25,499 nt of DNA, taken from positions 1-25,499 of IMG/VR virus record IMGVR_UViG_2778261277_000016; one strand, given 5' to 3'. The translations under genes and the position numbers were made by a program. Source of the stretch: a virus. Taxonomy: Duplodnaviria > Heunggongvirae > Uroviricota > Caudoviricetes. Numbering within the stretch: the stretch's first letter is position 1; every line of letters begins with the position of its first letter. The notes under the pieces are model-generated. The model did not search any database and had not been told where the DNA came from. It saw only the letters and a list, made by a program, of their open reading frames with translations. This document shows, piece after piece, positions 1,602 through 14,146 of this stretch.

Positions 1602-2711
1602 TTACTCTGTTTCTGCTATCCATTCCGGGATTTTGGCTTCAAGCTCAAGCTGCGTGGTAAAGCCACTGTTATCAATGGTGTGCTCGGCTTTTGCAATAAT
1701 CCAGTCCTGATTATCAATTTCGCTTTTAAATCCTGTTACCGTGCCATGCATTTCGGGGTAGAGTTCTGCGCGTCCACGTGCCAGTGTGATGGAGAACGCT
1801 GCGGCTCCGCGTTGTAGCTGCTGCCACTTTGCCGCCGCTGCGCGTCTTGCTGCCTGCTCGTTCTGATAAGTCTTGCGTAACACAAACACATTGCCTTCTG
1901 CGCCTTCCATATAATCACCTTCACGGCTGCTGCTTTTCTCCTTTTTGGGTTTTGGCGGTTTGCGGCGTTTCACGCTGACTTTTTTCTTTTTCCCGTAATT
2001 AAGATCAAGCCAGTAAGCGCGTACCCCCGTATACGCTTCGCGGTCAGCAATGCGGAACTGATGGCGATCGCCACTGCTGCGCGTGATGGCGAACGAGGGC
2101 AACGGCTGGCCCTGTGCGTTCACGCCACCGCCTGGCATGATGAATAACAGATTACCGCTTTTTACCGTGGTGATTGCGCCCAGCATTTCCGCCATGCGCG
2201 TAAGGAAGGACATGTCGCTTTCTTCGGTCTGGTCGGCGTGGTCGATTTCGATATCCATCAGCATTTCGCTGATTTGTGGTTTCAGACCATACCGATGAGC
2301 GATGGCGGATACCACACGCTCGAGGGTCACATCATGCCAGGACACCTCACGTTTAACGTTAAATTCATCCCGAAAATCTGCGCTTCTGGCTGAAACAGTC
2401 AGCCTGTCCGGCGGTCCTTCGTGAGCGATTTCATCAACAATGTAAGTGCCTTTTTCTGTCAGCGGTTCTCCTTTCCAGCCAATGAGAACCGTCAGGCGCG
2501 CGCCCCGTGGCGGTAGCTGCAACTGACCATCCGCATCATCCAGCGTGATGGTGAGCTGGTCCGCCTCAAATCCCCGGTTGTCGGTCAGTGACAGGCTCAT
2601 CAGGCGCTCTGCCACGCCTGACAGCGTTTTACCCTCCGCAAGAATATCAAAATCCGGCATTTTCACGGGGTCTGTGCCCTGACTGAGCAATTGCATGGTG
2701 GTATCGGTCAT
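1602..2711 (-). CDS. D: Phage tail protein D (P2 gpD family, late control gene D)
   Basis: 369-aa product; size, position before ogr and overall sequence fit P2 gpD. Start chosen at MTDTT because AGGGAGGG precedes it; the ORF track extends to 2732. Confidence 0.8.
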   Translation of the reverse strand: MTDTTMQLLSQGTDPVKMPDFDILAEGKTLSGVAERLMSLSLTDNRGFEADQLTITLDDADGQLQLPPRGARLTVLIGWKGEPLTEKGTYIVDEIAHEGPPDRLTVSARSADFRDEFNVKREVSWHDVTLERVVSAIAHRYGLKPQISEMLMDIEIDHADQTEESDMSFLTRMAEMLGAITTVKSGNLLFIMPGGGVNAQGQPLPSFAITRSSGDRHQFRIADREAYTGVRAYWLDLNYGKKKKVSVKRRKPPKPKKEKSSSREGDYMEGAEGNVFVLRKTYQNEQAARRAAAAKWQQLQRGAAAFSITLARGRAELYPEMHGTVTGFKSEIDNQDWIIAKAEHTIDNSGFTTQLELEAKIPEWIAETE

Positions 2712-2764
2712 CTTTCCCTCCCTGTGCGCCATGGTCGCATGTGCGTGCGGAGGGGGTTACTGCT

Positions 2765-2792
2765 TTTTGTTGTCGCCGTGGTGGGAGAACGG
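2765..2792 (+). promoter_or_regulatory. Candidate late-promoter activator box TTTTGTTGT-N12-AGAACGG upstream of FI
   Basis: TTTTGTTGT cgccgtggtggg AGAACGG, centred about 89 bp before the FI ATG. A near-identical box lies upstream of P (21938-21965). Resembles, but is not identical to, the P2 Ogr site TGT-N12-ACA. Confidence 0.3.
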
Positions 2793-2867
2793 CGCAGGGG
2801 TGAGATTACGCGCGTGGTGGGTGATGATTGTTGCCGAATCATTTAACGGATACAAGGGGCTGAAGCT

Positions 2868-4052
2868 ATGAGTGAAACTCGTTTTCATGGTGCCCGTGTC
2901 ACGGAAAGTACCGACCTGGTAACAGCGATTAATGATGTTGATTCCAGCGTTATCGGTATCGTGGCAACGGCGGATGATGCGGACGCGAAGCTGTTCCCGC
3001 TGAACAAGCCCACACTGCTGACCCGCGTCAATGACGTGCTGGGAAAATGCGGAACAACGGGGACGCTTTATCGTGCGCTTAAGGCCATCGCAGACCAGGT
3101 GAGCACAAAGGTGATCGTCGTTCGCGTGGCTGAACACAAAGAAGAAGACGGAAAGACGCAGGATCAACTGGTTATCGGTGGTTCTGAGGATGACGGCAGC
3201 TATACGGGGATGTATGCGCTGCTTGTTGCAGAGCAGGATGAAAGCATCGGATACCGTCCGCGTATTCTGGCCGCGCCGGAGCTGGACACGGAGGCGGTAA
3301 CAAAATCCCTGTGCGTGATTGCGGGTAAACTGCGCGCGTTTGTGTATGCCACATGTCATGGTTGTAACACGATGGCTGAGGCGATTGCCTACCGCCAGAA
3401 ATTCAACGAACGTGAGGTGATGCTCTTATGGCCTGACTTCATCGCCTACAACCCGAAAAGTGGCAAAAACGAAACGTTCCCCGCGCCTGCCTATGCGTGC
3501 GGCCTTCGTGCGTACATTGACCATGAGCAGGGCTGGCACAAATCATTGTCCAACGTTCCGGTTAAAAATGTGCTGGGGATGTCGAGGCATGTGTTCTGGT
3601 CGTTGCAGGCCGAAGACAGCGATGCCAACAGCCTCAACAACAAAGAAATCACGACCATTATTCGTCGCAACGGGTTCCGCTTCTGGGGCAACCGCACACC
3701 GGAAACGAACGCCTACATCTTTGAGGTGTATACCCGAACCGCACAGGTGCTGGCTGATTCAATTGCGGAAGCGCAGTTTGAAACCATCGACAGTCCACTG
3801 ACGCCTGCGAACGTGAAGGATGTTATCAGTGCCATCAGGGCAAAACTGGATTCACTGGTTACTGCCGGGAAACTGATTGGCGCGGAGTGCTGGTATGACG
3901 TGGTGGATAACAGCACCACGGATTTACGTCAGGGGCGTGTGCGTATTCGCTACAAATATACGCCCGTTCCGCCACTGGAAGACATGGAGCTTTACCAGAC
4001 GTTTACTGATGAATTCTTTGGTCCCGCATTTGCGGTGCTGGGAGGTGCCTGA
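2868..4052 (+). CDS. FI: Tail sheath protein (P2 gpFI family)
   Basis: 394 aa, close to P2 FI size as I recall it; AAGGGG RBS; followed by the tube gene with a TGATG overlap. Confidence 0.9.
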   Translation: MSETRFHGARVTESTDLVTAINDVDSSVIGIVATADDADAKLFPLNKPTLLTRVNDVLGKCGTTGTLYRALKAIADQVSTKVIVVRVAEHKEEDGKTQDQLVIGGSEDDGSYTGMYALLVAEQDESIGYRPRILAAPELDTEAVTKSLCVIAGKLRAFVYATCHGCNTMAEAIAYRQKFNEREVMLLWPDFIAYNPKSGKNETFPAPAYACGLRAYIDHEQGWHKSLSNVPVKNVLGMSRHVFWSLQAEDSDANSLNNKEITTIIRRNGFRFWGNRTPETNAYIFEVYTRTAQVLADSIAEAQFETIDSPLTPANVKDVISAIRAKLDSLVTAGKLIGAECWYDVVDNSTTDLRQGRVRIRYKYTPVPPLEDMELYQTFTDEFFGPAFAVLGGA

Positions 4053-4564
4053 TGGCTGTACCAAAACATCTTCGCTTTTTTACGCTGTTTGTGGATGGTG
4101 AAAACGAAGTGGGTAAGGTGACGTCCGTCACTCTGCCTAAGCTGACGCGCAAAACCGACAGCTACCGGGGTGGTGGCATGATGGGTGCGGTAAGTATTGA
4201 TCTCGGTCTGGACGACTCCGCGCTTGATGCGAGCTTTGTCATGGGGGGCGCAGTTCGTGAGCTGTTCCTTAAGTATGGCGGCACGATTGACGGCACGCTG
4301 CTGCGTTTTGCGGGTGAATACTACACCGATGCAGAAAGCGACCTGTATGAAGTCGAAATGCGCGGACGTGTGACGGAAATTGATATGGGGGAAGCCAAAC
4401 AGGGCGAAGCCACATCACACACTTACGCCATTAAAAACACCTACTACAAGCTGAGTGTTAACGATCGCCCGTTGTGGGAGATTGACCTGCTGAACTTCAT
4501 CTACCGGAAGGACGGCAAGGACATTGTGCCTGACCGTATCCGTTCCGCGCTTGGGCTTGGCTGA
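4052..4564 (+). CDS. FII: Tail tube protein (P2 gpFII family)
   Basis: 170 aa; GGAGGTG RBS; canonical position between sheath and the E/E' chaperone. Confidence 0.9.
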   Translation: MAVPKHLRFFTLFVDGENEVGKVTSVTLPKLTRKTDSYRGGGMMGAVSIDLGLDDSALDASFVMGGAVRELFLKYGGTIDGTLLRFAGEYYTDAESDLYEVEMRGRVTEIDMGEAKQGEATSHTYAIKNTYYKLSVNDRPLWEIDLLNFIYRKDGKDIVPDRIRSALGLG

Positions 4565-4618
4565 TAAGTAATATGCAGGCGGCGCAGTGCGTCGCCTCTG
4601 ACTGAAAGGAGTTTCCTG

Positions 4619-4984
4619 ATGAAAGAGACGAAAAACATCGATACCGAAAACACGGTAGTTACTGACACTGTGAAAGAAACCAGTGAGCGTGGCGTAAAAC
4701 TTACCCAACCAATTGAGCGAGGTGGCGAAAAAATCACGTATGTGGAGATCACCGGGGCTATTGAGCAGGCTGGATCTCTGCGAGATTTGTCGCTGTCTGA
4801 TGTGCTGAATCTGAAAGCGGAATCCATGTTTACGCTGCTGTCACGCGTGACATCACCGCGACTGGATGAAGTGACGATCAAAAAAATGGCATCCCGTGAC
4901 TTTATTCAGTTATGTGTGGTTGCCGTAAATTTTTTGAGCGGTGCGGACTCTGGCGGGAAGAACGAACAGGCGACGGAAGCCTGA
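4619..4984 (+). CDS. E: Tail assembly chaperone E (frame-0 product)
   Basis: 121-aa ORF with AAGGAG RBS directly upstream of the tape-measure gene; contains the slippery heptamer near its 3' end. Confidence 0.8.
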   Translation: MKETKNIDTENTVVTDTVKETSERGVKLTQPIERGGEKITYVEITGAIEQAGSLRDLSLSDVLNLKAESMFTLLSRVTSPRLDEVTIKKMASRDFIQLCVVAVNFLSGADSGGKNEQATEA

Positions 4985-5148
4985 TCACGGTTGTGTGCTT
5001 TGAGCACATAGAAGACTTTGTGGCGGATATTGCCGCCATTTTTAACTGGTCGCCCGCCGAAATCTTCATGATGACGCCCGGCGAAGTGGTTAGCTGGCGT
5101 GAGCGGGCGGCACTTCGCAGCGGGAATGCAGACAATGAAGACTCTTGA
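4619..5148 (+). CDS. E+E' fusion chaperone made by programmed -1 frameshift
   Basis: The -1 frame ORF (4912-5148) continues from the slippery T-TTT-TTG at 4930-4936. Frame arithmetic checked: E codons start at 4931 and 4934, the E' frame reads from 4930. This is the conserved P2 E/E' (lambda G/GT-like) arrangement. Confidence 0.6.
4930..4936 (+). other. Slippery heptamer TTTTTTG for the -1 ribosomal frameshift
   Basis: AAATTTTTTGAG at the point where the E frame and the -1 E' frame overlap. Confidence 0.6.
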
Positions 5149-7942
5149 TATCCGGGTCGCTTTCAGCGCCGTTGACAGGCTGACCCGGCCTGCCGAAAAC
5201 GCCCGCCGCCTGATGGGGCAGTTTGGTGACTCCATCCAGCGAACGCAGGGGGCGATCAAAAATCTCGAGCGTCAGGCGCGATCATTTGAGCGCGCCCGTG
5301 ACGCTGTCAGTAAAGCGGATGCGGGCATCGTGAAAGCACGACGCCAGCTTAACGCCCTTAATCAGTTACAACGCACGGGTACAGTGCTCAGCGAAAAACA
5401 ACAAAAGCTGATGCAGCAGTTAAGCACCCGGCTTGAACGCCTGAATGAATCGCGCACACGGGAAATTCAGAAAATGCGGGAGCTTGGCGGAGAGCTGAAA
5501 CGCCACGGCATTTCCCTGACAGGCAGCGATAACACCATCCAGCAGGCCATCAGACGCACCGAACAGTACAACAACCAGCTTGAACGCGAACGGCAGGCGC
5601 TTGCGCGTGTAACACGGGCGCGTGAGCGGTATTCGCGCGCGCAGGAAACAGCGGGAAAACTGAAAACAGGTGGTGCGCTGGCAATTGGTGCGGCAGCGGC
5701 GGGCGGCTATGCTGCCGGGCGTTTTTTGCAGCCTGCGATCGGGTTCGGCAAAGAGATGTCCCGCGTTCAGGCACTGACGCGAATCGACCAGAACAGCCCG
5801 CAGTTTAAGGCGCTGCGTGAGCAGGCGTTAAAACTTGGCTCTGAAACGCAGTTCACCGCAGGCGATGCCGCCAGTGGACAGGCATTTCTTGCAATGGCTG
5901 GCTTTACACCACAGGCCATTCAGGCTGCGCTCCCTGGCGTACTGAGCATGGCAACGGCTGGCGGTATGGACCTCGGTGAGACGGCGGATATTGGCTCAAA
6001 TATTCTGACGCAGTTCGGTCTTTCTGCTGACCAGATGGACCGGGTCGGCGACACACTCACCGCAGCGTTTACCCGTACCAACACTGACCTTCGCGCACTG
6101 GGTGAAACCATGAAATATGCAGGTCCGGTGGCGGGTAAGCTGGGAATATCGCTGGAGCAGGCCGCAGCGATGGCGGGCGTGCTGGCGAATATGGGTATCA
6201 GGGGGAGTGATGCTGGTACGGCAATGCGTGCCAGCCTGGCTCGTCTGGCATCACCGCCAAAGGCGGCAGCAGAGGCGCTGAAAGAGCTTGGCGTGTCTGT
6301 CTCGGATGCCGGGGGCAAAATGCGCCCGATGGAGGATGTGCTGGCTGACCTTTATAAAGCTACCCGCAAATACGGGGAAGTTGACCGGGTATCGTTCTTT
6401 AAGGACATTGCCGGAGAAGAGGCTTTCACATCATTTATGGCCCTCGTTGATGCGGCAGGTGACGGCTCCTTACCCAAACTGAGAAAAGAACTTGAAGGCG
6501 CGCGCGGTGAGGCTGAACGCACGGCAAAGGTTATGGCCAACAACCTTGACGGCGATCTGAAATCACTCAGCAGTGCATGGGAAGGGTTGCGCATCCGCAT
6601 TGCAGATCTGATTGACGGTCCGCTGCGTTCTGTCACGCAGTGGCTCACGCGTGTGGTATCAAAGGTGACGGCGCTGGCGCAGGCCCATCCCGCACTGACG
6701 CGCCAGCTACTGATTGCAGGCGGTGCACTGCTGGCAATGACTGCAACGGTTGGCTCGTTGTCGCTGGCTATTGGTGTGCTTGCTGGCCCGCTGGCAAAAC
6801 TGCGTCTTGGTTTTTCCCTCCTGACCGGATCAATGAATGCTGTCAGGGTTCTGCCAGCACTATGGGGAATGGTGACGGGTTCCGTTTCTTTACTGGGAGG
6901 CGCTATCGGGGCGTTGTTCAGTCCGGTTGGTCTTATCGTGGCTGCGCTTGCCGGAGCTGCCGTTCTTATCTGGAAATACTGGGATCCCATCAGGGCATTT
7001 TTTGCCTGGGTGTTCAGCGGGATTATGGAAAGGCTGACCCCGTTGCGCGAAACCTTTGAACGGTTTGGTCCTGTTTTTGACGCAATCGGGAGTGGGATCA
7101 GCCAGGTGTTTAACTGGTTTAAATCGCTGCTGTCACCGATGGAGTCCAGCAAGGAAACTCTGGATAAATGTACCAGTGCTGGCGAGATATTCGGTAACGT
7201 TCTTGGCGGTGCGTTACAACTTGTTCTGACACCTGCAAAAATGTTGCTGGATACGCTGGCGTGGATACTTGAAAAGCTTGGTGTGCTTCCGGATGAAGCG
7301 GAAAGGGCGCGCAAGAAAATCGAAGACGCACAGCGTGCGGCCATTCTTCAGGACAAGGTTGCCTTGCTTCAGGGGGACCTGGCGAAAATCAATCCGCCGA
7401 AGCCTGTGGAAAATGGCAATGGCACCGGAGGTGATAACCCCAAAGACAATAAACCGCTCACAGACAGCAATACCGGTACGCTGCGCAGACTCAGCAAAAT
7501 TGCTGATAACACAGGTAAGCTGGTTGAGGAGACGAAAAAACGCATTGGCCCCGGCGATATTGTCTTTAAAAACCTGCCCCGAGCACTTGCTGTTCGTGGG
7601 GAGTGGCAGGAGCGGAAGATTGCGCAGGTCAGTAAGCCTGCCCCCGCAATTAATATCACACCCGTGGTCCCGGCTCCGCTGCCTCCGGCGCTGGTCCCTG
7701 TTGTTGCGGCCAGCTCCCGCCCGGTGGCGGAGGCTATACGATCTCCAGTGGCATCAGTTCCTGTAACTTCCCGTAACCGGGAGCCTGTTGCCTCCGGATT
7801 TGGTGGTGAAATTCATGTTCATCTGCATAACGTTGTTACGCAGAATCCCCGCGAACTGGCGAAACTGGTCGGTGAAATGGTCAGGGCAGAAATGGAACGG
7901 CGCGCCCGTGCCGGGCGTGGCAGTTTTTACGATAAAGATTGA
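5126..7942 (+). CDS. T: Tail tape measure protein (P2 gpT family)
   Basis: Very long ORF (about 940 aa) with an N-terminal coiled-coil-like region, central Gly/Ala-rich hydrophobic segments and a Pro/Val-rich C-terminus, directly after E/E'. Start is uncertain: GTG 5099, ATG 5126 or ATG 5135. Confidence 0.85.
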   Translation: MQTMKTLDIRVAFSAVDRLTRPAENARRLMGQFGDSIQRTQGAIKNLERQARSFERARDAVSKADAGIVKARRQLNALNQLQRTGTVLSEKQQKLMQQLSTRLERLNESRTREIQKMRELGGELKRHGISLTGSDNTIQQAIRRTEQYNNQLERERQALARVTRARERYSRAQETAGKLKTGGALAIGAAAAGGYAAGRFLQPAIGFGKEMSRVQALTRIDQNSPQFKALREQALKLGSETQFTAGDAASGQAFLAMAGFTPQAIQAALPGVLSMATAGGMDLGETADIGSNILTQFGLSADQMDRVGDTLTAAFTRTNTDLRALGETMKYAGPVAGKLGISLEQAAAMAGVLANMGIRGSDAGTAMRASLARLASPPKAAAEALKELGVSVSDAGGKMRPMEDVLADLYKATRKYGEVDRVSFFKDIAGEEAFTSFMALVDAAGDGSLPKLRKELEGARGEAERTAKVMANNLDGDLKSLSSAWEGLRIRIADLIDGPLRSVTQWLTRVVSKVTALAQAHPALTRQLLIAGGALLAMTATVGSLSLAIGVLAGPLAKLRLGFSLLTGSMNAVRVLPALWGMVTGSVSLLGGAIGALFSPVGLIVAALAGAAVLIWKYWDPIRAFFAWVFSGIMERLTPLRETFERFGPVFDAIGSGISQVFNWFKSLLSPMESSKETLDKCTSAGEIFGNVLGGALQLVLTPAKMLLDTLAWILEKLGVLPDEAERARKKIEDAQRAAILQDKVALLQGDLAKINPPKPVENGNGTGGDNPKDNKPLTDSNTGTLRRLSKIADNTGKLVEETKKRIGPGDIVFKNLPRALAVRGEWQERKIAQVSKPAPAINITPVVPAPLPPALVPVVAASSRPVAEAIRSPVASVPVTSRNREPVASGFGGEIHVHLHNVVTQNPRELAKLVGEMVRAEMERRARAGRGSFYDKD

Positions 7943-7948
7943 GGAGTC

Positions 7949-8443
7949 ATGGCCATGATGATGATCTACGGCATGTTTGTTTTTGAGCTGCGCACGCTGC
8001 CGCATCAGCAGTTACAGCAAAACAAAAGCTGGCGGCATGTGAAAAATGAACGCGTTAACCGTTCAGCAAGCTGGCAGTATATCGGTGCAGGTGATGATCG
8101 CATCGTTCTTTCTGGTGTGCTTTATCCTGAAATTACAGGTGGCGAAGTGTCGCTGTCGCTGCTGACCACGCAGGCGTATACAGGACGACCCTGGCCTTTG
8201 ATTGATGGTGTCGGGCAGATTTACGGCATGTATGTCCTGACCGGAACGAATACGACCCGCTCCGAGTTTGATCGCTACGGTAAGGCGAAAAAGATAGAAT
8301 TTTCACTGACTCTTGAACGCTGTGATGAGGATTTGCGGGAGCGCCTGCAATCCTCATCGTTCAGTGATATGCTGTCCGGCTTCAAAGATAAGGTCACATC
8401 ATCCCTTAACAGCGCGGCCAGCTCCGTTAACGGGCTGTTTTGA
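7949..8443 (+). CDS. U: Tail protein U (P2 gpU family)
   Basis: 164 aa; motifs such as MYVLTGTN...KIEFSLTLERCDE resemble P2 gpU from memory. True start may be the ATG at 7955, which has better spacing from the GAGGAG RBS. Confidence 0.85.
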   Translation: MAMMMIYGMFVFELRTLPHQQLQQNKSWRHVKNERVNRSASWQYIGAGDDRIVLSGVLYPEITGGEVSLSLLTTQAYTGRPWPLIDGVGQIYGMYVLTGTNTTRSEFDRYGKAKKIEFSLTLERCDEDLRERLQSSSFSDMLSGFKDKVTSSLNSAASSVNGLF

Positions 8444-8450
8444 TTAACGC

Positions 8451-8488
8451 AAAACCGCTAATGGTCAGATTAGCGGTTTTCATTTTCC
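8451..8488. terminator. Bidirectional hairpin terminator between U and the invertase fragment
   Basis: Perfect 12-bp inverted repeat AAAACCGCTAAT(8451-8462)/ATTAGCGGTTTT(8469-8480) with a 6-nt loop, followed by CATTTTCC on +. Sits between convergent genes. Confidence 0.5.
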
Positions 8489-8775
8489 TGAGTCTGCCTG
8501 GTTGTTTCTTCAGCCTGTATATCGCCTACAGGGTGATAACGATAAATCGTCGATATGCCGATGTCGTAAATGATCGCCAGTTGTTTCCTGTCATGACCGT
8601 TTTTAATCAGCCTCGCTATTTGTTCGTGTTGTTCTTTTGTCAACTTCGGGCGACGTCCGCCAATGCGTCCTTGTGCGCGTGCTGCTGCCAGCCCGGCCAG
8701 TGTACGCTCTACAATTAATTCATGTTCCATTTCGGCTAAAGCTCCCATGACGTGAAAAAAGAAACGCCCCATGGG
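8470..8775 (-). pseudogene. Truncated serine-invertase paralog (C-terminal half only)
   Basis: Translation PMGRFFFHVMGALAEMEHELIVERTLAGLAAARAQGRIGGRRPKLTKEQHEQIARLIKNGHDRKQLAIIYDIGISTIYRYHP matches the C-terminal half of the adjacent invertase with a handful of substitutions. DNA similarity stops near 8775; the catalytic N-terminus is absent and there is no convincing RBS. Confidence 0.6.
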
Positions 8776-8860
8776 TGTTGATTGATGCGCCGCGCGATAA
8801 ACGTACCTATTTCCGTGAGATAAATTACATCGCCGCGGCATTTCAATATCAGAAAAAGAA

Positions 8861-9433
8861 TTACAAATCAGCTTGAGTTTGAAGTTCCTCTACAGGGTGA
8901 TAACGATAAATCGTCGATATACCGATATCGTAAATAATTGCCAACTGTTTCCTGCTATAGCCATTTTTGATCAGCCTTGCTATTTGTTCATGTTGCTCTT
9001 TTGTCAGTTTCGGACGACGTCCACCAATACGCCCCTGTGCACGTGCTGCTTCAAGTCCGGCCAGTGTTCGTTCAACTATTAATTCACGCTCCATTTCCGC
9101 TAAAGCCCCCATGACGTGAAAAAAGAAACGTCCCATGGGTGTTGACGTATCAATGCTGTCTGTAAGACTACGGAAGTTAACCCCTTTTTCCCGCAGTTCC
9201 TCAATAAGAGTGATGAGGTGTTTCATGCTTCTGCCCAGCCTGTCCAGCTTCCAGACAACGAGCGTATCTCCTTCTGATAACGTTCTGAGCAGCTTTTTCA
9301 ATCCCGGTCGGGCTGACTTTGTTCCGCTGATTTTATCCTCAAAAATCAGTTCACATCCTGCGCAGTTCAGTGCGTTTCGTTGTAAATCTGTATTCTGGTC
9401 ATTTGTTGACACACGAATGTAGCCAATTTGCAT
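8861..9433 (-). CDS. Serine DNA invertase, Gin/Hin/Pin/Cin/Min family
   Basis: Starts MQIGYIRVSTNDQNTDLQRNAL, the canonical N-terminus of this family with the catalytic Ser in RVST. Also has TLVVWKLDRLGRS, SLTDSIDTS and a C-terminal HTH (GISTIYRYHP). AAAGAGGA RBS 8 nt before the ATG. The ORF track's upstream extension to 9628 is rejected. Confidence 0.9.
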   Translation of the reverse strand: MQIGYIRVSTNDQNTDLQRNALNCAGCELIFEDKISGTKSARPGLKKLLRTLSEGDTLVVWKLDRLGRSMKHLITLIEELREKGVNFRSLTDSIDTSTPMGRFFFHVMGALAEMERELIVERTLAGLEAARAQGRIGGRRPKLTKEQHEQIARLIKNGYSRKQLAIIYDIGISTIYRYHPVEELQTQADL

Positions 9434-9487
9434 GAAAAATATCCTCTTTGTTTTGTTAAAAATACATAGCTGGTATAGGTGGGAGTT

Positions 9488-9513
9488 AAGACGAAAACGT
9501 TGGTTTGGGGGAA
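9488..9513. repeat. Candidate 26-bp invertase crossover site (cassette 1)
   Basis: AAGACGAAAACG-TT-GGTTTGGGGGAA. Right half-site is identical in all five sites; overall shape resembles hixL TTCTTGAAAACC-AA-GGTTTTTGATAA from memory. Confidence 0.5.
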
Positions 9514-9936
9514 GGCTCAGCGCTGCCCGTTGGTGTGCCCGTTCCGTGGCCCTCAGCCACACCGCCAGCAGGGTGGCTGAAATGTAACGGCGCAGCATTT
9601 TCTTCTGAAATGTACCCCAATCTGGCAAAGGCTTATCCTACAAATAAATTACCGGATTTACGGGGTGAGTTTATTCGCGGCTGGGATGACGGGCGGGGAA
9701 TTGATTCAGGACGCACTCTACTTTCGTTACAGGGCGATATGTTTAAATCGCACAGTCATTACTTCCGTGAAATATGGGGTGCAAATGGACCAGATGGAAC
9801 TGGTGGACCGTACATTGTCGGGGCGGATACAAACGGTTCGAGAATAAATTTAGGCACTATAGAAACCAGTGCACCTGGTGGTTCAGAAACCCGTCCCCGT
9901 AACATTGCATTTAATTACATCGTAAGAGCGGCATAG
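9505..9936 (+). CDS. Silent tail-fibre C-terminal cassette 1 (tail-collar-like domain, HxH-containing); promoterless gene segment
   Basis: No ATG or RBS (the ORF track begins at TTG inside the crossover site). Conserved N-part GEGSALPVGVPVPWPSATPP.GWLKCNGAAFSSEMYP.LAKAYPTNKLPDLRGEFIRGWDDGRGID, variable middle, conserved end RPRNIAFNYIVRAA; the same ends occur in the expressed H gene. Confidence 0.75.
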   Translation: MGEGSALPVGVPVPWPSATPPAGWLKCNGAAFSSEMYPNLAKAYPTNKLPDLRGEFIRGWDDGRGIDSGRTLLSLQGDMFKSHSHYFREIWGANGPDGTGGPYIVGADTNGSRINLGTIETSAPGGSETRPRNIAFNYIVRAA

Positions 9937-9955
9937 AAACGTTGGTTTGGGGGAA
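9930..9955. repeat. Candidate crossover site (cassette 2)
   Basis: GGCATAGAAACG-TT-GGTTTGGGGGAA; the left half-site contains the stop codon of cassette 1. Confidence 0.5.
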
Positions 9956-10414
9956 GGCTCGGCGCTGCCCGTTGGTGTGCCTGTTCCGTGGCCCTCAGCC
10001 ACACCACCAACGGGCTGGCTGAAATGTAACGGTGCAGCATTTTCTTCTGAAATGTATCCCAAACTGGCAAAAGCTTACCCCACCAATAAATTACCGGATT
10101 TACGGGGTGAATTTATTCGTGGCTGGGATGATGGGCGGGGAATTGATAATAGACGCAACCTACTGTCTGCACAGTCTGACACTATTCAGAATATAGTTGG
10201 CACTTTTGGACGAACTCAGCTTTTTAAAGATGCTTTAAATTCAGGGCCATTTAGTCAAACTGACTCTATATTATCAGTAGGCTTGCAACCAACTGAGAAT
10301 ATTGAAGGATATGGCGCCTCTGTATGGACATTCGACGCCTCTCGCTCAGTTCGCACAGCATCTGAAACACGTCCTCGTAACATTGCGTTTAATTACATCG
10401 TAAGGGCGGCATAG
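9947..10414 (+). CDS. Silent tail-fibre C-terminal cassette 2 (no HxH, AT-rich variable core)
   Basis: Same conserved ends as cassette 1; variable core NRRNLLSAQSDTIQNIVGTF... is unrelated to cassettes 1 and 4; in a different reading frame from cassette 1. Confidence 0.75.
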   Translation: MGEGSALPVGVPVPWPSATPPTGWLKCNGAAFSSEMYPKLAKAYPTNKLPDLRGEFIRGWDDGRGIDNRRNLLSAQSDTIQNIVGTFGRTQLFKDALNSGPFSQTDSILSVGLQPTENIEGYGASVWTFDASRSVRTASETRPRNIAFNYIVRAA

Positions 10415-10433
10415 AAACGTTGGTTTGGGGGAA
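10408..10433. repeat. Candidate crossover site (cassette 3)
   Basis: GGCATAGAAACG-TT-GGTTTGGGGGAA, identical to the cassette 2 and 4 sites. Confidence 0.5.
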
Positions 10434-10886
10434 GGCTCTGCACTACCTGTTGGTGTGCCTGTTCCATGGCCGTCAGCCACACCGCCAACAGGGTGGCTGA
10501 AATGTAACGGTGCAGCATTTTCTTCTGAAATGTACCCCAATCTGGCAAAGGCTTACCCCACGAATAAATTACCGGATTTACGGGGCGAATTTATCCGTGG
10601 CTGGGATGACGGACGAGGTATTGATGCAGGACGAGAGATACTTTCATTTCAGGAAGGCACTATCGTCTCCGGTTTTGATGATAATGATACTGGGGATATC
10701 AGTTCACTTAGCTCAACACAATACGGATTTGGTGACACTCTAACCTCTAATCAATGGGGGGCCATAAATGGCAAAAAGTGGATATTTGATGCATCCAGTA
10801 AAGGTGCACAAAAATATGACTGGCGGGCTTATGTATCAGCTCGTCCGCGTAATATTGCATTTAATTACATCGTAAGAGCGGCATAG
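10425..10886 (+). CDS. Silent tail-fibre C-terminal cassette 3 (no HxH)
   Basis: Same conserved ends; unique variable core AGREILSFQEGTIVSGFDDNDTGD... Confidence 0.75.
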   Translation: MGEGSALPVGVPVPWPSATPPTGWLKCNGAAFSSEMYPNLAKAYPTNKLPDLRGEFIRGWDDGRGIDAGREILSFQEGTIVSGFDDNDTGDISSLSSTQYGFGDTLTSNQWGAINGKKWIFDASSKGAQKYDWRAYVSARPRNIAFNYIVRAA

Positions 10887-10905
10887 AAACGTTGGTTTGG
10901 GGGAA
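10880..10905. repeat. Candidate crossover site (cassette 4)
   Basis: GGCATAGAAACG-TT-GGTTTGGGGGAA. Confidence 0.5.
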
Positions 10906-11400
10906 GGCTCTGCACTACCCGTTGGTGTGCCTGTTCCGTGGCCCTCAGCCACACCGCCAACAGGGTGGCTGAAATGTAACGGCGCAGCATTTTCTTCTGA
11001 AATGTACCCCAAACTGGCAAAGGCTTACCCCACCAATAAATTACCGGATTTACGGGGTGAGTTTATTCGTGGCTGGGATGATGGGCGGGGAATTGATTCA
11101 GGGCGTTCCTTGCTTAATGCACAATCACATTCGGTTATAGATCATATTCATTATATGGAGTTATGGACTGGTGAAGGGCTTGCCGCAAACAACACCCGTG
11201 CAGGAACAAACCCTGGTATACTGGCTACATACGGTGATGGCGGGATTGTTAAAACAGATGAGTCAGGTGTAAAAGTTCCATCTTCACTACGTGCTATTGG
11301 CACTCGTGGTGTTTATAGATTAGGTGCCAACGGAGGGAATACAGGAACGGAAAACCGCCCCCGTAATATTGCGTTTAACTATATTGTAAGGGCTACTTAA
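10897..11400 (+). CDS. Silent tail-fibre C-terminal cassette 4 (HxH-containing), coupled to the downstream tail-fibre assembly gene
   Basis: Same conserved ends; variable core contains HIHYMELW; its stop overlaps the next gene's start as TAATG (11398-11402). Confidence 0.75.
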   Translation: MGEGSALPVGVPVPWPSATPPTGWLKCNGAAFSSEMYPKLAKAYPTNKLPDLRGEFIRGWDDGRGIDSGRSLLNAQSHSVIDHIHYMELWTGEGLAANNTRAGTNPGILATYGDGGIVKTDESGVKVPSSLRAIGTRGVYRLGANGGNTGTENRPRNIAFNYIVRAT

Positions 11401-12017
11401 TGAATAATGCTGCTGCAGTACTTGATCAGAATGGTATCGCTATAACTGCAGGCGATATTACCGTTTATAACTACGATGCTGAAAACCGTGAATATCTCTC
11501 TGCCACTGTTGAGTATCTCGCTTATGGTGTTGGAATTCCGGCTCACTCATGCATTGACGCGCCACCAGAAAAACGCCCCGGCTTCGCTGTCTGTCGTGAT
11601 ACCGACCAGAACATCTGGAAATATGTTCCAGACCACAGAGGCGAAACGGTTTACAGCACAGAGAATGGTAACGCTGTGCAAATCACACAACCGGGAGATT
11701 ACCCTCCTGATACGACGGTGAAACAGCCAGCTACTATCTATGATGTCTGGGATGGTGAGATTTGGGTGACAGATACGAGACGACAGCACGCAGCAGAACT
11801 GGAAGCTGCCGGAGCGCATCGTCAGCAACTTGAGGAACAGGCAATGGCATCTGTTGAGCTTATTAATCTCAAACTACGAGCCGGACGCCGATTGACGCCC
11901 CAGGAGACGGAAAAACTAAACGCCGTGCTTGATTTCATAGATACGCTTAATGCGACTGACATCAGCACTGCACCGGATATCAACTGGCCGGAAATGCCTC
12001 TGGCAGCAGCCAGTTGA
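11400..12017 (+). CDS. Tail fibre assembly protein (Tfa family; P2 gpG / Mu U analogue)
   Basis: 205 aa; translationally coupled to cassette 4 with an AAGGG RBS; family assignment is from memory of Tfa-like proteins (short conserved N-terminus, Asp/Pro-rich regions, coiled-coil segment) and from its position beside the fibre cassettes. Confidence 0.75.
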   Translation: MNNAAAVLDQNGIAITAGDITVYNYDAENREYLSATVEYLAYGVGIPAHSCIDAPPEKRPGFAVCRDTDQNIWKYVPDHRGETVYSTENGNAVQITQPGDYPPDTTVKQPATIYDVWDGEIWVTDTRRQHAAELEAAGAHRQQLEEQAMASVELINLKLRAGRRLTPQETEKLNAVLDFIDTLNATDISTAPDINWPEMPLAAAS

Positions 12018-12023
12018 GTATAA

Positions 12024-13541
12024 TTAAGCCGCCCTCACGATATAGTTAAATGCGATATTGCGGGGGCGAGTTTCACTACCACCAGTGTTACCAATACTCC
12101 CTCGTGAATGAAGTGTCGGTGATGGGATCAGACTCCCGCCTGTACTTGTGGCATCAAGTCCCCGTCCTTGTGTATATGTTTTTTTGAAAATTGTGGCCAA
12201 CTCCCATTCATCCTTTGTGTCATACCCATCGTTAGCTACAACAATATGGCGGTGTTTTTCCAGCATCCCAGTTTGAAAGCTTAATAAAGCACGTCCTGCA
12301 TCAATCCCTCGCCCGTCATCCCAGCCACGAATAAACTCGCCCCGTAAATCCGGTAATTTATTGGTGGGGTAAGCCTTTGCCAGTTTGGGGTACATTTCAG
12401 AAGAAAATGCTGCACCGTTACATTTCAGCCACCCTGTTGGCGGTGTGGCTGAGGGCCACGGAACAGGCACACCAACGGGTAGTGCAGAGCCTTCCCCCAA
12501 ACCAAGGTATGCGAGAAGACCAGCTACATCCTTTCCACTCAAATTGGTAAGCGTATTGTCCAGCGGTTGTTTACCTGCCAGCGCACTAAGCATTGTCGTG
12601 GCAAAGTTCGGATCATTCCCCAGTGCCGCAGCCAGTTCGTTCAGCGTGTTCAGTGCATCAGGTGACGAATCTACAAGTGCGGCAATCGCGGCCATAACGA
12701 AAGCCGTGCTTGCGATCTGGGTACTATTAGTCCCCTGTGGCGCTGTTGGTGTTGTTGGCATTCCGGTCAGTGCCGGGCTGTTTAATGGTGCTTTCTTGCT
12801 CGTTTCATCCATTACCGCCTTAACAGCTTTTGGTGTCGCTGCCAGCGTTTCAGACGTGCTGTTCGTGGCGCTACTGAGCTGAACAATCCCTTTTTGTGTT
12901 GTGGTGGCGTTCTGGGCGGTATATTTCCCGTCAGCCAGGTCATATGCAGCCTTAACTGCTTTCGGTGTTGCGGCCAGTGTTTCTGATTCACTGTTAATTG
13001 CACTGCTTAACTGAGTAAAACCTTTTGCGGTCAGCGAGGCGTCCGGGTGACGTCGTGACTGTTCGTGCTCTGAGATTTTATCATCCACATATTTGCGGGT
13101 TGCCAGAACCACCGACGGGTCGATTTTCAGCGTGATGGCTTCGGTATTCGTGACAACCAGAATCATGCGGATAGTCTGGGTGCGTCCACTGCCTTCCTGC
13201 AACTGCGGTTTGTACGTTTCCGGGCAGTTTGCCACCGCAATGAGTACACCTTCATCATCATAAAGACCAATCTCACGGATCCAGAATCCTCCCTCGTTTT
13301 CAGGGATGATTTGCTCCGCAATAATCTGGCTCTGATTGTTAGGGTCAACACTCAGAAGATTCAGCGGTGCAATGCGTTTCTGGTTAATCAGTTTTGTTTG
13401 TGCAGGGTCTGGTGTTGGTAACACACCATTTGCATCACCAACGGCCATTTGCGTCAGATTCAGCTTACTGCCGAGCATCGTCGCGTTAGCCAGTCGTGCT
13501 GCGCCCTGATTAGTCAGAATGGCGTAGTATTTCACTGTCAT
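12024..13541 (-). CDS. H: Tail fibre protein H, currently expressed variant (P2 gpH-like N-terminus fused to a tail-collar-type C-terminal cassette)
   Basis: N-terminal portion through EHEQSRRHPDASLTAKGFTQLSSA...ETLAATPKAVKA matches P2 gpH from memory. The C-terminal 155 aa begin ...LGLGEGSALPVGVPVPWPSATPPTGWLKCNG and end RPRNIAFNYIVRAA, the same frame as the silent cassettes on the opposite strand. Confidence 0.9.
   Translation of the reverse strand: MTVKYYAILTNQGAARLANATMLGSKLNLTQMAVGDANGVLPTPDPAQTKLINQKRIAPLNLLSVDPNNQSQIIAEQIIPENEGGFWIREIGLYDDEGVLIAVANCPETYKPQLQEGSGRTQTIRMILVVTNTEAITLKIDPSVVLATRKYVDDKISEHEQSRRHPDASLTAKGFTQLSSAINSESETLAATPKAVKAAYDLADGKYTAQNATTTQKGIVQLSSATNSTSETLAATPKAVKAVMDETSKKAPLNSPALTGMPTTPTAPQGTNSTQIASTAFVMAAIAALVDSSPDALNTLNELAAALGNDPNFATTMLSALAGKQPLDNTLTNLSGKDVAGLLAYLGLGEGSALPVGVPVPWPSATPPTGWLKCNGAAFSSEMYPKLAKAYPTNKLPDLRGEFIRGWDDGRGIDAGRALLSFQTGMLEKHRHIVVANDGYDTKDEWELATIFKKTYTQGRGLDATSTGGSLIPSPTLHSRGSIGNTGGSETRPRNIAFNYIVRAA
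12492..12517. repeat. Candidate crossover site inside H (constant/variable junction), inverted relative to the cassette sites
   Basis: + strand reads TTCCCCCAAACC-AA-GGTATGCGAGAA, i.e. on the - strand TTCTCGCATACC-TT-GGTTTGGGGGAA. Homology with the cassettes begins exactly at the TT core, inside the CTT codon of ...AYLGLGEGS. Confidence 0.55.
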
Positions 13542-14146
13542 GCGTTTACTCTCAGATTATCAATTAAATGAATGGCCGGGGCAGGGAAATAATCCCCTTC
13601 GACAATAATGGACTCCGGGGTGTAGGGATAAACCGTCAGGGCATCGCCGTGATAGCATCCCGTACCAACGAAAATCTTTCCGTTCACACTCAGGCTGATC
13701 GCCAGCCCCGTCAGATGGCGACTTACTGGTTTTGCATCCGCAATAAGGCGCTCAAGTTCCTGATACATTTCATCGGTGATGCCCTGATCAAGTACTCCGA
13801 CAACAATGCGAAATGTTCCTGGCTCCTCGTTGAGTTGCCACCACTCCTTTACTTCAATCAGGTAGCCGAGAGGCTCCACGGCTCTTCGCAGTGCGCTGAT
13901 GGTCCCTTTGTGTCGGTGTATCAGCCATGCATCACGAATTACCTGTCGCTTTGTCTCTTCCGGCCAGTTGCGATCCCAGCGGTCAACGGAAAACGCCCAG
14001 GCGAAATAAGGCAGCAGATGCACCGGGCAGGTGTCCGGCGACCACAGCGTGTTGAGGTCTACCGGGATGTCTGTAATGCGCGTTCCGACAGCTTCGGCAT
14101 AACGCATGAAATTGCTGGCTGATGGCGGTAACAGTGAATTACTCAT
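13538..14146 (-). CDS. I: Baseplate/tail protein I (P2 gpI family)
   Basis: Position between J and H; start set at MSNSLLPP (ATG 14144-14146), which overlaps the J stop; the ORF track extends to 14200. Confidence 0.8.
   Translation of the reverse strand: MSNSLLPPSASNFMRYAEAVGTRITDIPVDLNTLWSPDTCPVHLLPYFAWAFSVDRWDRNWPEETKRQVIRDAWLIHRHKGTISALRRAVEPLGYLIEVKEWWQLNEEPGTFRIVVGVLDQGITDEMYQELERLIADAKPVSRHLTGLAISLSVNGKIFVGTGCYHGDALTVYPYTPESIIVEGDYFPAPAIHLIDNLRVNA

Follow-up and report, generated by a model that had tools for sequence, protein, structure and literature searches.

Din-family crossover sites of a Min-type multiple inversion system in a P2-like prophage with a Mu-like right end

In the window analysed here (the whole stretch of DNA, 25,499 nucleotides in length), the start of a DNA invertase gene is separated from the first of a row of tail-fibre cassettes by a short interval, 9434-9513, that contains a 26-bp site. 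The question raised by this locus is whether the site is one of a set of working crossover sites and, if it is, what fixes its distance from the invertase gene and whether its occupancy governs invertase expression. A preliminary description of the same DNA had proposed five crossover sites, with the first of them overlapping the promoter of the invertase.

The surroundings of the switch form a P2-type tail and head module (sheath, tube, tape measure, gpU, gpI, gpJ, terminase and portal). Flanking inverted repeats were sought around the sheath-to-gpU block, 2868-8443, as a possible invertible unit, and none were found. The genes of the switch are as follows:

8861..9433, minus strand: DNA invertase gene, 190 aa (Pfam Resolvase 1.7e-51, HTH_7 1.3e-13)
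9502-9936, plus strand: silent tail-fibre C-terminal cassette c1
9944-10414, plus strand: silent tail-fibre C-terminal cassette c2
10422-10886, plus strand: silent tail-fibre C-terminal cassette c3
10894-11400, plus strand: silent tail-fibre C-terminal cassette c4
11400-12017, plus strand: tail-fibre assembly gene, present singly (Pfam Caudo_TAP 8.7e-26)
12024..13541, minus strand: expressed tail-fibre gene H, 505 aa (Pfam Phage_tail_fib, Phage_fiber_2 and Collar), made up of a constant part, 13541..12504, and cassette c5, 12503..12024

The invertase belongs to the serine recombinases, has its catalytic Ser10 in the motif YIRVSTNDQ and an HTH at its C-terminus, and is 74% identical to P1 Cin and 72% identical to Mu Gin. 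Cassettes c1-c4 are promoterless ORFs built on a common plan: each begins with the inner half of a crossover site, continues through a conserved stretch of ~220 nt into a Phage Tail Collar domain, which is found in c5 as well, and ends in RPRNIAFNYIVRA. The ATG of the assembly gene overlaps the stop codon of cassette 4.

Exact copies of GGTTTGGGGGAA occur five times, on the plus strand at 9502, 9944, 10422 and 10894 and on the minus strand at 12503..12492, where chance would provide ~0.003 matches to an exact 12-mer in 2 x 25.5 kb. Each copy is the invariant part of a 26-mer that is completed by a core dinucleotide TT, identical in all five sites, and by a variable outer half:

9488-9513, plus strand: crossover site 1, fixed and invertase-proximal, AAGACGAAAACG TT GGTTTGGGGGAA (outer half 9488-9499, core TT 9500-9501, inner half 9502-9513)
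9930-9955, plus strand: crossover site 2, GGCATAGAAACG TT GGTTTGGGGGAA, with the TAG stop of cassette 1 in its outer half
10408-10433, plus strand: crossover site 3, the same 26-mer as site 2, with the stop of cassette 2 in its outer half
10880-10905, plus strand: crossover site 4, the same 26-mer as site 2, with the stop of cassette 3 in its outer half
12517..12492, minus strand: H site, inside tail-fibre gene H, TTCTCGCATACC TT GGTTTGGGGGAA

The H site, which codes for LLAYLGLGE, is the only one in inverted orientation (four sites on the plus strand, one on the minus strand). Read on the other strand, site 1 is TTCCCCCAAACC AA CGTTTTCGTCTT, sites 2-4 are TTCCCCCAAACC AA CGTTTCTATGCC and the H site is TTCCCCCAAACC AA GGTATGCGAGAA. 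The anatomy given in the preliminary description is borne out on each of these points: the five sites share one half-site and a TT/AA core; cassettes 2-4 have an identical left half that includes the stop of the previous cassette, the TAG within GGCATAGAAACG coinciding with the ORF ends at 9936, 10414 and 10886; and the left halves of cassette 1 and H, AAGACGAAAACG and TTCTCGCATACC, diverge from it. The distance of 54 bp between site 1 and the invertase ATG was also correctly stated, 9434-9487 being exactly 54 nt and the ATG lying at 9433.

The invariant GGTTTGGGGGAA, which lies within the conserved 5′ parts of the cassettes, constitutes the first 12 nt of repeats of 209-229 nt that are 91-96% identical, and the crossover sites sit exactly at the outer edge of these repeats. 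The outer halves have different owners, namely the invertase flank at site 1, the H gene at the H site and the 3′ end of the preceding cassette at sites 2-4. Comparison across loci shows that a cassette gains a different left half when it is shuffled, and that the outer half of site 1 stays constant beside the invertase while the cassette behind it varies. The earlier proposal that different left halves would give each cassette its own inversion frequency is mis-framed, because it is to the upstream neighbour, and not to the cassette, that a left half stays attached.

Sites of this kind have been defined in the Min system of p15B, where mix sites read TTCCCCCAAACC AA CGTTTTAGTCTT, TTCCCCTAAACC AA CGTTTTTATGCC and TTCCCCCAAACC AA GGTAATCAAGAA (PMC3241671 Table 3), and the Din-family (dix) consensus is TTC---AAAC- -A -GTTT---GAA (PMC3241671). 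In a comparison with the published site sequences, site 1 has 1 mismatch to p15B mixM..L', sites 2-4 have 2 mismatches to mixMr''N' and the H site has 3 mismatches to mixQ''R'. The inner halves (TTCCCCCAAACC) and AA cores of all five sites fit the Din consensus. The outer half of the H site fits it at all but one position, making this site the best dyad among the five, and the outer halves of sites 1-4 keep GTTT and lose GAA, as do those of the published mix sites. The sites of the window are Din-family crossover sites in a Min-type multiple inversion system.

The resemblance to Min extends to the layout of the locus. In both systems more than two 26-bp sites give overlapping invertible segments, and alternative tail-fibre 3′ cassettes are joined to one constant 5′ part. 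Both have one fixed site beside the invertase, with an outer half ending in ...GTCTT, internal sites whose outer half, ...TATGCC, holds the stop of the preceding cassette, and one near-dyad site in the constant gene. Min of p15B (E. coli 15T-) has six sites and is carried by a P1-related plasmid, whereas the window has five and belongs to a chromosomal prophage, with a Mu-like right end in a P2-like prophage. A Min-type site with the same 54-nt spacer also occurs in a P1-like phage, whose invertase is 97% identical over 109 aa.

Other systems share particular traits with the window. As with Mu gin, the invertase gene occupies the right end of a transposable phage and is transcribed away from the DNA that inverts; exactly 54 nt lie between the proximal site and the start codon (gixR-gin in Mu), and sequence homologous to the enhancer is found in the 5′ coding region. 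Mu, however, has two sites with a GA core and two good halves, whereas the five sites of the window have TT/AA as their core and outer halves that are degenerate. Mu also has an assembly gene for each variable part, where the window has a single one for five cassettes. With P1 Cin the window shares the placement of crossover sites at the outer ends of long inverted repeats. In prophage Phi2 of E. coli EC958, GAGAGATAAACG TT GGTTTGGGGGAA lies in a 227-bp imperfect inverted repeat, and PacBio reads show the segment both ways round (Forde et al. 2014, PMC4134206). The inner half-site GGTTTGGGGGAA and the TT core are those of the window, but Phi2 has a single 2-kb segment with two sites and other outer halves. 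The exact Phi2 site, at 54-nt spacing, is found again beside an 84%-identical invertase in a further locus (L006). This site anatomy is already known from p15B Min and from Gin, Hin and Cin; the window is a further example and brings no new principle.

Evidence on whether the sites are used comes from related genomes. One set of five cassettes, with the assembly gene and the invertase, is shared at 99.5-100% identity by the window and the loci of E. coli JNEC-KY180 (L001) and E. coli M-17 (L090), and each of the three has its own order and orientation of the cassettes:

window: inv, c1 c2 c3 c4 tfa c5', H
L001: inv, c4 tfa c5', c2', c1', c3', H'
L090, from the invertase: inv, c5, tfa', c4', c2', c3', c1', H'

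The L001 order can be reached from that of the window with two inversions. In nine of ten cassette instances, the 200 nt that follow the site match the cognate cassette of the window with 0-1 mismatch, against 7-23 for the others, and in the same nine the half-site across the core has a new partner. As the 5′ region stays with its cassette and the outer half changes, exchange is confined to the 24 bp AAACG-TT-GGTTTGGGGGAA-GGCTC. The exception is c1 in L090, which has a mosaic 5′ region, pointing to homologous exchange or gene conversion as an additional process.

That mosaic, together with the length and high identity of the repeats, is what might speak for RecA-dependent homologous recombination within the ~220-nt 5′ regions of the cassettes, instead of exchange at the 26-mers, as the source of the rearrangements. 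We regard this as extremely improbable. The nine cassette instances retain every diagnostic SNP of the 200-nt region while the partner at the core changes, and every junction lies within the 24-bp interval, on the outermost margin of the homology. Moreover, an intact Gin/Cin-like invertase and a predicted enhancer are present, the sites almost match the mix sites defined by experiment, and in the many genomes examined no deletion has collapsed the four sites in direct repeat or the repeats that go with them.

Exchange at the core is also reflected in the proteins that it would produce. The constant part of H, 13541..12504, was joined in silico to each cassette at the core, giving fusions that are in frame in all five cases and that all occur as exact proteins in E. 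coli assemblies:

H-c1 fusion: exact protein in 11 E. coli contigs
H-c2 fusion: exact protein in 5 E. coli contigs
H-c3 fusion: exact protein in 3 E. coli contigs
H-c4 fusion: exact protein in 3 E. coli contigs
H-c5 fusion (the window's own gene): exact protein in 4 E. coli contigs

Ten further loci with an identical invertase have 2-6 sites each; their internal sites are found in either orientation and both end sites have never moved. In many draft assemblies the contig ends within the site, 64-90 nt upstream of a homologous invertase gene. Switching within a strain was not seen, three isolates of E. coli 8178 (L084-L086) having identical arrangements. The isomers, with junctions in 24 bp, and the five exact fusions indicate inversion at the site core, and genome comparison leads us to conclude that all five sites are used in nature. 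The reading of the 26-mers as crossover sites with the anatomy of Gin, Hin, Cin and Min, two half-sites around a 2-bp core, is supported by these natural isomers and exact fusion proteins.

The switch has a composite origin. Two features mark the junction downstream of the invertase gene:

8783..8860, minus strand: last 78 nt of the right end of a Mu-like transposable prophage, terminating in ...CGTTTATCGCGCGGCGCATCA at 8783
8470..8782, minus strand: 3′ remnant (~residues 96-199) of a second invertase gene, P2-like and resident, which the Mu-like end has cut

The ...CGTTTATCGCGCGGCGCATCA end at 8783 aligns with the right end of Mu. In 15 Mu-type E. coli loci, homology to the window stops at 8781-8783; from 9518 down to 8783, identity to the window is 97.96% in one of them (L084) and 99.9-100% in the remaining 14. 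The assembly collection has this exact invertase in 1817 indexed blocks; in those loci that were read, a Mu-type module (GPD, V, W, J, I and a short H') ends with it, and the adjoining host gene, often truncated, differs from locus to locus. Across the junction, 8000-8782 is 98-99% identical to P2-like loci (L002 and L088), and the remnant at 8470-8782 is 92% identical over 112 aa to the recombinase of L002. The 92-aa ORF at 8440-8718 on the plus strand overlaps this opposite-strand remnant; it matched no Pfam or NCBIfam family, had no similarity to gpD, and is probably not a gene. The stop of homology at 8783 and the truncated invertase beyond it indicate that a Mu-like right end was inserted into the resident invertase gene. 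By this comparison, the invertase, site 1 and the cassettes all belong to a Mu-like right-end module, and the H crossover site is at the same time the other junction with P2-like DNA.

A locus assembled in this way could be a frozen fossil, in which a Mu-like invertase and its cassettes face a P2-like H whose half-site, TTCTCGCATACC and not TTGTCAAAAACC, is no longer recombined. The chimeric structure itself, with its right end inside a truncated resident gene, and an outer half at the H site that differs from the one usually met by this invertase are compatible with such a state. Yet none of the other four sites is as good a dyad as the H site, the invertase has an intact ORF that matches copies from actively permuted loci at 100% identity, and P2-like H fused to each of the Mu-lineage cassettes c1-c5 is found among the exact proteins of E. 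coli genomes. A fossil is very unlikely on this evidence, as the five exact fusions indicate that the hybrid switch still inverts and that inversions continued after the chimera had formed.

The position of site 1 can be considered in the light of its relatives. Among 60 homologous loci, the outer end of the proximal site lies 45, 53-55, 63-66 or 73-76 nt from codon 1. When the loci are reduced to 26 dissimilar spacer families, the values are 45, 53-55, 64-65 and 74-76 nt, with a period of 10.3-10.5 bp (Rayleigh R = 0.92, p ~2e-10, for classes that are not fully independent phylogenetically). The 54-nt class is modal and includes the window, Mu gixR-gin, the e14-pin type and the P1-like phage with a Min-type site. 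Steps of ~10.4 bp suggest helical phasing of the site with the enhancer. Short loops between a site and an enhancer depend on phase and need HU. The core of site 1 in the window is ~96 bp from the first predicted Fis core; the hin enhancer is ~100 bp from hix (PMC3798978). The 54-nt distance is best explained by helical phasing of site 1 with the predicted enhancer inside the invertase gene.

This enhancer is predicted by homology. In the P1 record the cin enhancer is annotated at +19..+90 of cin, and homologous sequence lies at the same position in the window:

9344..9415, minus strand: predicted recombinational (Fis) enhancer in the invertase coding region, +19..+90 from the ATG
9398-9412, minus strand: candidate Fis core GTGTCAACAAATGAC
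9349-9363, minus strand: candidate Fis core GCGCAGGATGTGAAC

When the window is aligned with P1, Mu and a P1-like phage, no base of TCAACAAATGA or GCAGGATGTGA varies, and 9344-9415 is conserved at synonymous positions as well; part of this conservation may reflect protein-coding constraint on the catalytic motif. The switch of the window would, by this homology, be Fis-dependent.

A second constraint on the same interval could be the promoter of the invertase gene, for which the spacer offers the following elements:

9434..9487, minus strand: 54-nt spacer, AACTCCCACCTATACCAGCTATGTATTTTTAACAAAACAAAGAGGATATTTTTC
9442-9448, minus strand: Shine-Dalgarno sequence AAGAGGA (-15..-9)
9459-9464, minus strand: candidate -10 element TATTTT, from a weight matrix
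9484-9489, minus strand: candidate -35 element TTAACT (-56..-51), from a weight matrix, its last 2 nt in site 1

A sigma-70 consensus scan of 8700-13700 gave no minus-strand promoter upstream of the invertase. A terminator scan of the same interval gave none on the minus strand between H and the invertase, which leaves room for read-through, so that the invertase may be transcribed from the fibre operon. The weight matrix pairs TTAACT with TGTATT (17-nt spacer, no A at -11) or with TATTTT (19-nt spacer), and its top score is matched by 7.5% of random windows. As -10 candidates, TATACC and TGTATT were rejected, for want of a last-position T or a second-position A. Among the three spacer variants of the lineage, ACCTATACCA, ATGTATTTTT and AAACAAAGAGG are invariant and the -35 region varies.

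Related spacers of 53-55 nt have a clearer arrangement. An extended -10 element, TGnCAnnnT, is present in 16 of 23 distinct spacers, at -35/-34 from the start codon, and in these (Mu gin, where it reads TGGCATGAT, and the e14-pin type included) a -35 element spaced by 17 nt starts on the last base of the site; 14 of the 16 hexamers are ATGnnn, for example ATGACC. A sigma-54 reading of TGGCAT-N5-nnGC in related loci would place the start within the Shine-Dalgarno sequence and is probably to be discarded, the same bases fitting an extended -10 (TGnCAnnnT, A2 and T6 invariant) with ATGACC 17 nt upstream. The window's own lineage is without the TGnCAnnnT promoter. In the 64-76-nt classes the promoter keeps the same position and lies 10-20 bp away from the site, from which it follows that overlap is no conserved requirement. 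For the 54-nt class it is fair to speak of a -35 element at the site edge.

The preliminary description had placed site 1 where the -35 region of the invertase would fall. For the window this is partly sustained: the best candidate, TTAACT, does overlap the site, by 2 bp, although its score is weak and no consensus promoter is found. Autoregulation of hin through hixL has been reported. A literature search of limited reach found no paper documenting Gin or Hin autoregulation, and no statement to that effect in papers citing the older Hin/P1 literature. The appeal to Cin as a precedent does not hold, as P1 cin is transcribed towards cixL, has its stop inside cixL, and has its predicted promoters ~600 bp from it.

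Site 1 might nevertheless have been placed mainly by its overlap with the -35 element, so that its occupancy would autoregulate the invertase and its divergent outer half would tune the repression. The hin precedent, the -35 elements on the last base of the site in related spacers and the 2-bp overlap of TTAACT all favour this idea, and repression of the promoter by invertase bound to site 1 is sterically plausible. It is opposed by the promoter features that the window's lineage does not share, by the 64-76-nt lineages, which conserve helical phase and not overlap, by the arrangement of P1 cin and by the lack of a documenting paper in the search; furthermore, site 1 has no Din outer GAA, and its occupancy may be weak. 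Such placement is a possibility to which we give somewhat less than even weight. As judged from the spacer comparison, both the position of the promoter and autoregulation are plausible in the window, and the case is weaker here than in Gin-like lineages. A more tentative proposal, which we hold to be rather doubtful, treats the proximal site, the invertase promoter and the intragenic enhancer as one co-evolving unit. Helical register (45/54/65/75 nt) would force the -35 element to the site edge in the 54-nt class, occupancy would set the level of invertase and the rate of switching, and the window, with its degenerate outer half and non-canonical promoter, would be a tuned low-expression variant.

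The preferred explanation remains a Min/Gin-type multiple DNA-inversion switch of which 9434-9513 forms the fixed end, next to the invertase. Dimers of the invertase would bind the 26-bp sites, each made up of the good inner half TTCCCCCAAACC, the asymmetric core AA/TT and an outer half that is degenerate to a varying degree. Together with the Fis-bound enhancer (~9344-9415) in its own 5′ coding region, the invertase would carry out strand exchange, at the 2-bp core, between oppositely oriented sites, four facing one way and the H site the other. Any of the five C-terminal cassettes could in this manner be fused in frame to the constant part of H, and successive inversions would flip the internal sites and permute the cassettes, leaving site 1 and the H site as the two immobile ends. 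A weak invertase promoter and its ribosome-binding site would have to fit into 54 nt, so that the -35 element would abut site 1 or overlap it by at most 2 bp. Taken as a whole, with its Min/Gin-type switch, its helical phasing and its promoter squeezed into 54 nt, this explanation is highly probable.

Two aspects go a modest step beyond the textbook picture, namely the comparative evidence that the distance between site and invertase changes by steps of one helical turn, and a Mu-like module that has come to act on a P2-like fibre gene and still works. For the phage, the locus would let one prophage display five receptor-binding tips on its tail fibre. This is relevant to the prediction of host range and to the interpretation of assemblies, since draft genomes break at exactly these sites.

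The working invertase, site 1 and every cassette of the window lie in a Mu-like module grafted into P2-like DNA. At one boundary, the right end of a Mu-like transposable phage stops at 8783 with the terminal sequence ...GCGCGGCGCATCA and interrupts a second, resident invertase gene of P2-like type; the other boundary is the H crossover site (12492-12517). The features at and beyond the 8783 boundary are as follows:

8470-8860, Mu-like right end together with the remnant of the resident invertase gene
8470-8782, minus strand, 3′ remnant of the P2-like resident invertase gene, the sole part left
2868-8443, plus strand, genes for sheath, tube, tape measure and gpU, convergent with the H-I-J-W-V group
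1602-2732, minus strand, gpD gene

The gene order of P2 differs from this arrangement of positions 1602-8443, which is shared by two P2-like relatives, L002 and L088 (E. coli S1-CHI-01-A). Inverted repeats flanking the sheath-to-gpU block (2868-8443) were looked for and none were found. L088 also carries c1 twice in opposite orientations (2726-2926 and 5012-5212), and in its annotation H appears as a fragmented gene.

Within the module, a single tail-fibre assembly gene is common to the five cassettes. It is translationally coupled to c4 and, in the present orientation with c5 fused to H, lies antisense to the transcript of the fibre gene. The c4-tfa-c5′ unit (10894-12503), with c5 in reverse orientation, is kept in all related loci. 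The invertase of the window recurs unchanged in ten loci (L092-L101), where the arrays it serves have 2 to 6 sites, cassettes that come from a larger pool (142-196 aa) and outer half-sites whose stop codon is TAG or TGA (GGCATAGAAACG, CGCATGAAAACG, AGCATGAAAACG, CGTATGAAAACG). Site-specific exchange is apparently not the only process acting on the cassettes. The conserved 5′ region of the H′-fused c1 of E. coli M-17 (L090, 1651-1850) is mosaic, with 11 mismatches to c1 versus 4-5 to c4 and c5, a pattern that points to gene conversion between copies of the 220-nt repeat.

Many draft-genome contigs terminate 64-90 nt before the first base of the invertase gene, within or at the crossover site (L010, L013, L014, L016, L025, L027, L032, L041, L042, L049, L055, L059, L066, L071, L075 and L083), probably because short-read assembly breaks at mixed orientations or repeated sequence. 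In L011 and L012 (Escherichia/Shigella), a run of ∼17 C, ∼40-60 nt ahead of the invertase gene, occupies the expected position of the site.

Most non-Min lineages, including Mu (L003, 3539-3592), L007-L009, L015-L030 and others, conserve an extended -10 motif (TGGCATGAT, TGGCATCAT, TGGCACACT or similar) at -35 from the invertase start codon, and in these lineages the crossover site and a -35-like ATGACC or ATGCAC share one base, the last of the former and the first of the latter. Among the invertase upstream regions compared, this extended -10 motif is absent from the lineage of the window.

The spacing between the proximal crossover site and the first invertase codon is quantised. Across the regions upstream of the invertase homologues L005-L083, those of L003 and L004, and the window (9434-9487), it takes values of 45, 53-55, 63-66 and 73-76 nt, with a period of ∼10.4 bp (R = 0.92, 26 spacer families). 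This periodicity suggests that the crossover site is held in helical phase with the predicted enhancer inside the invertase gene.
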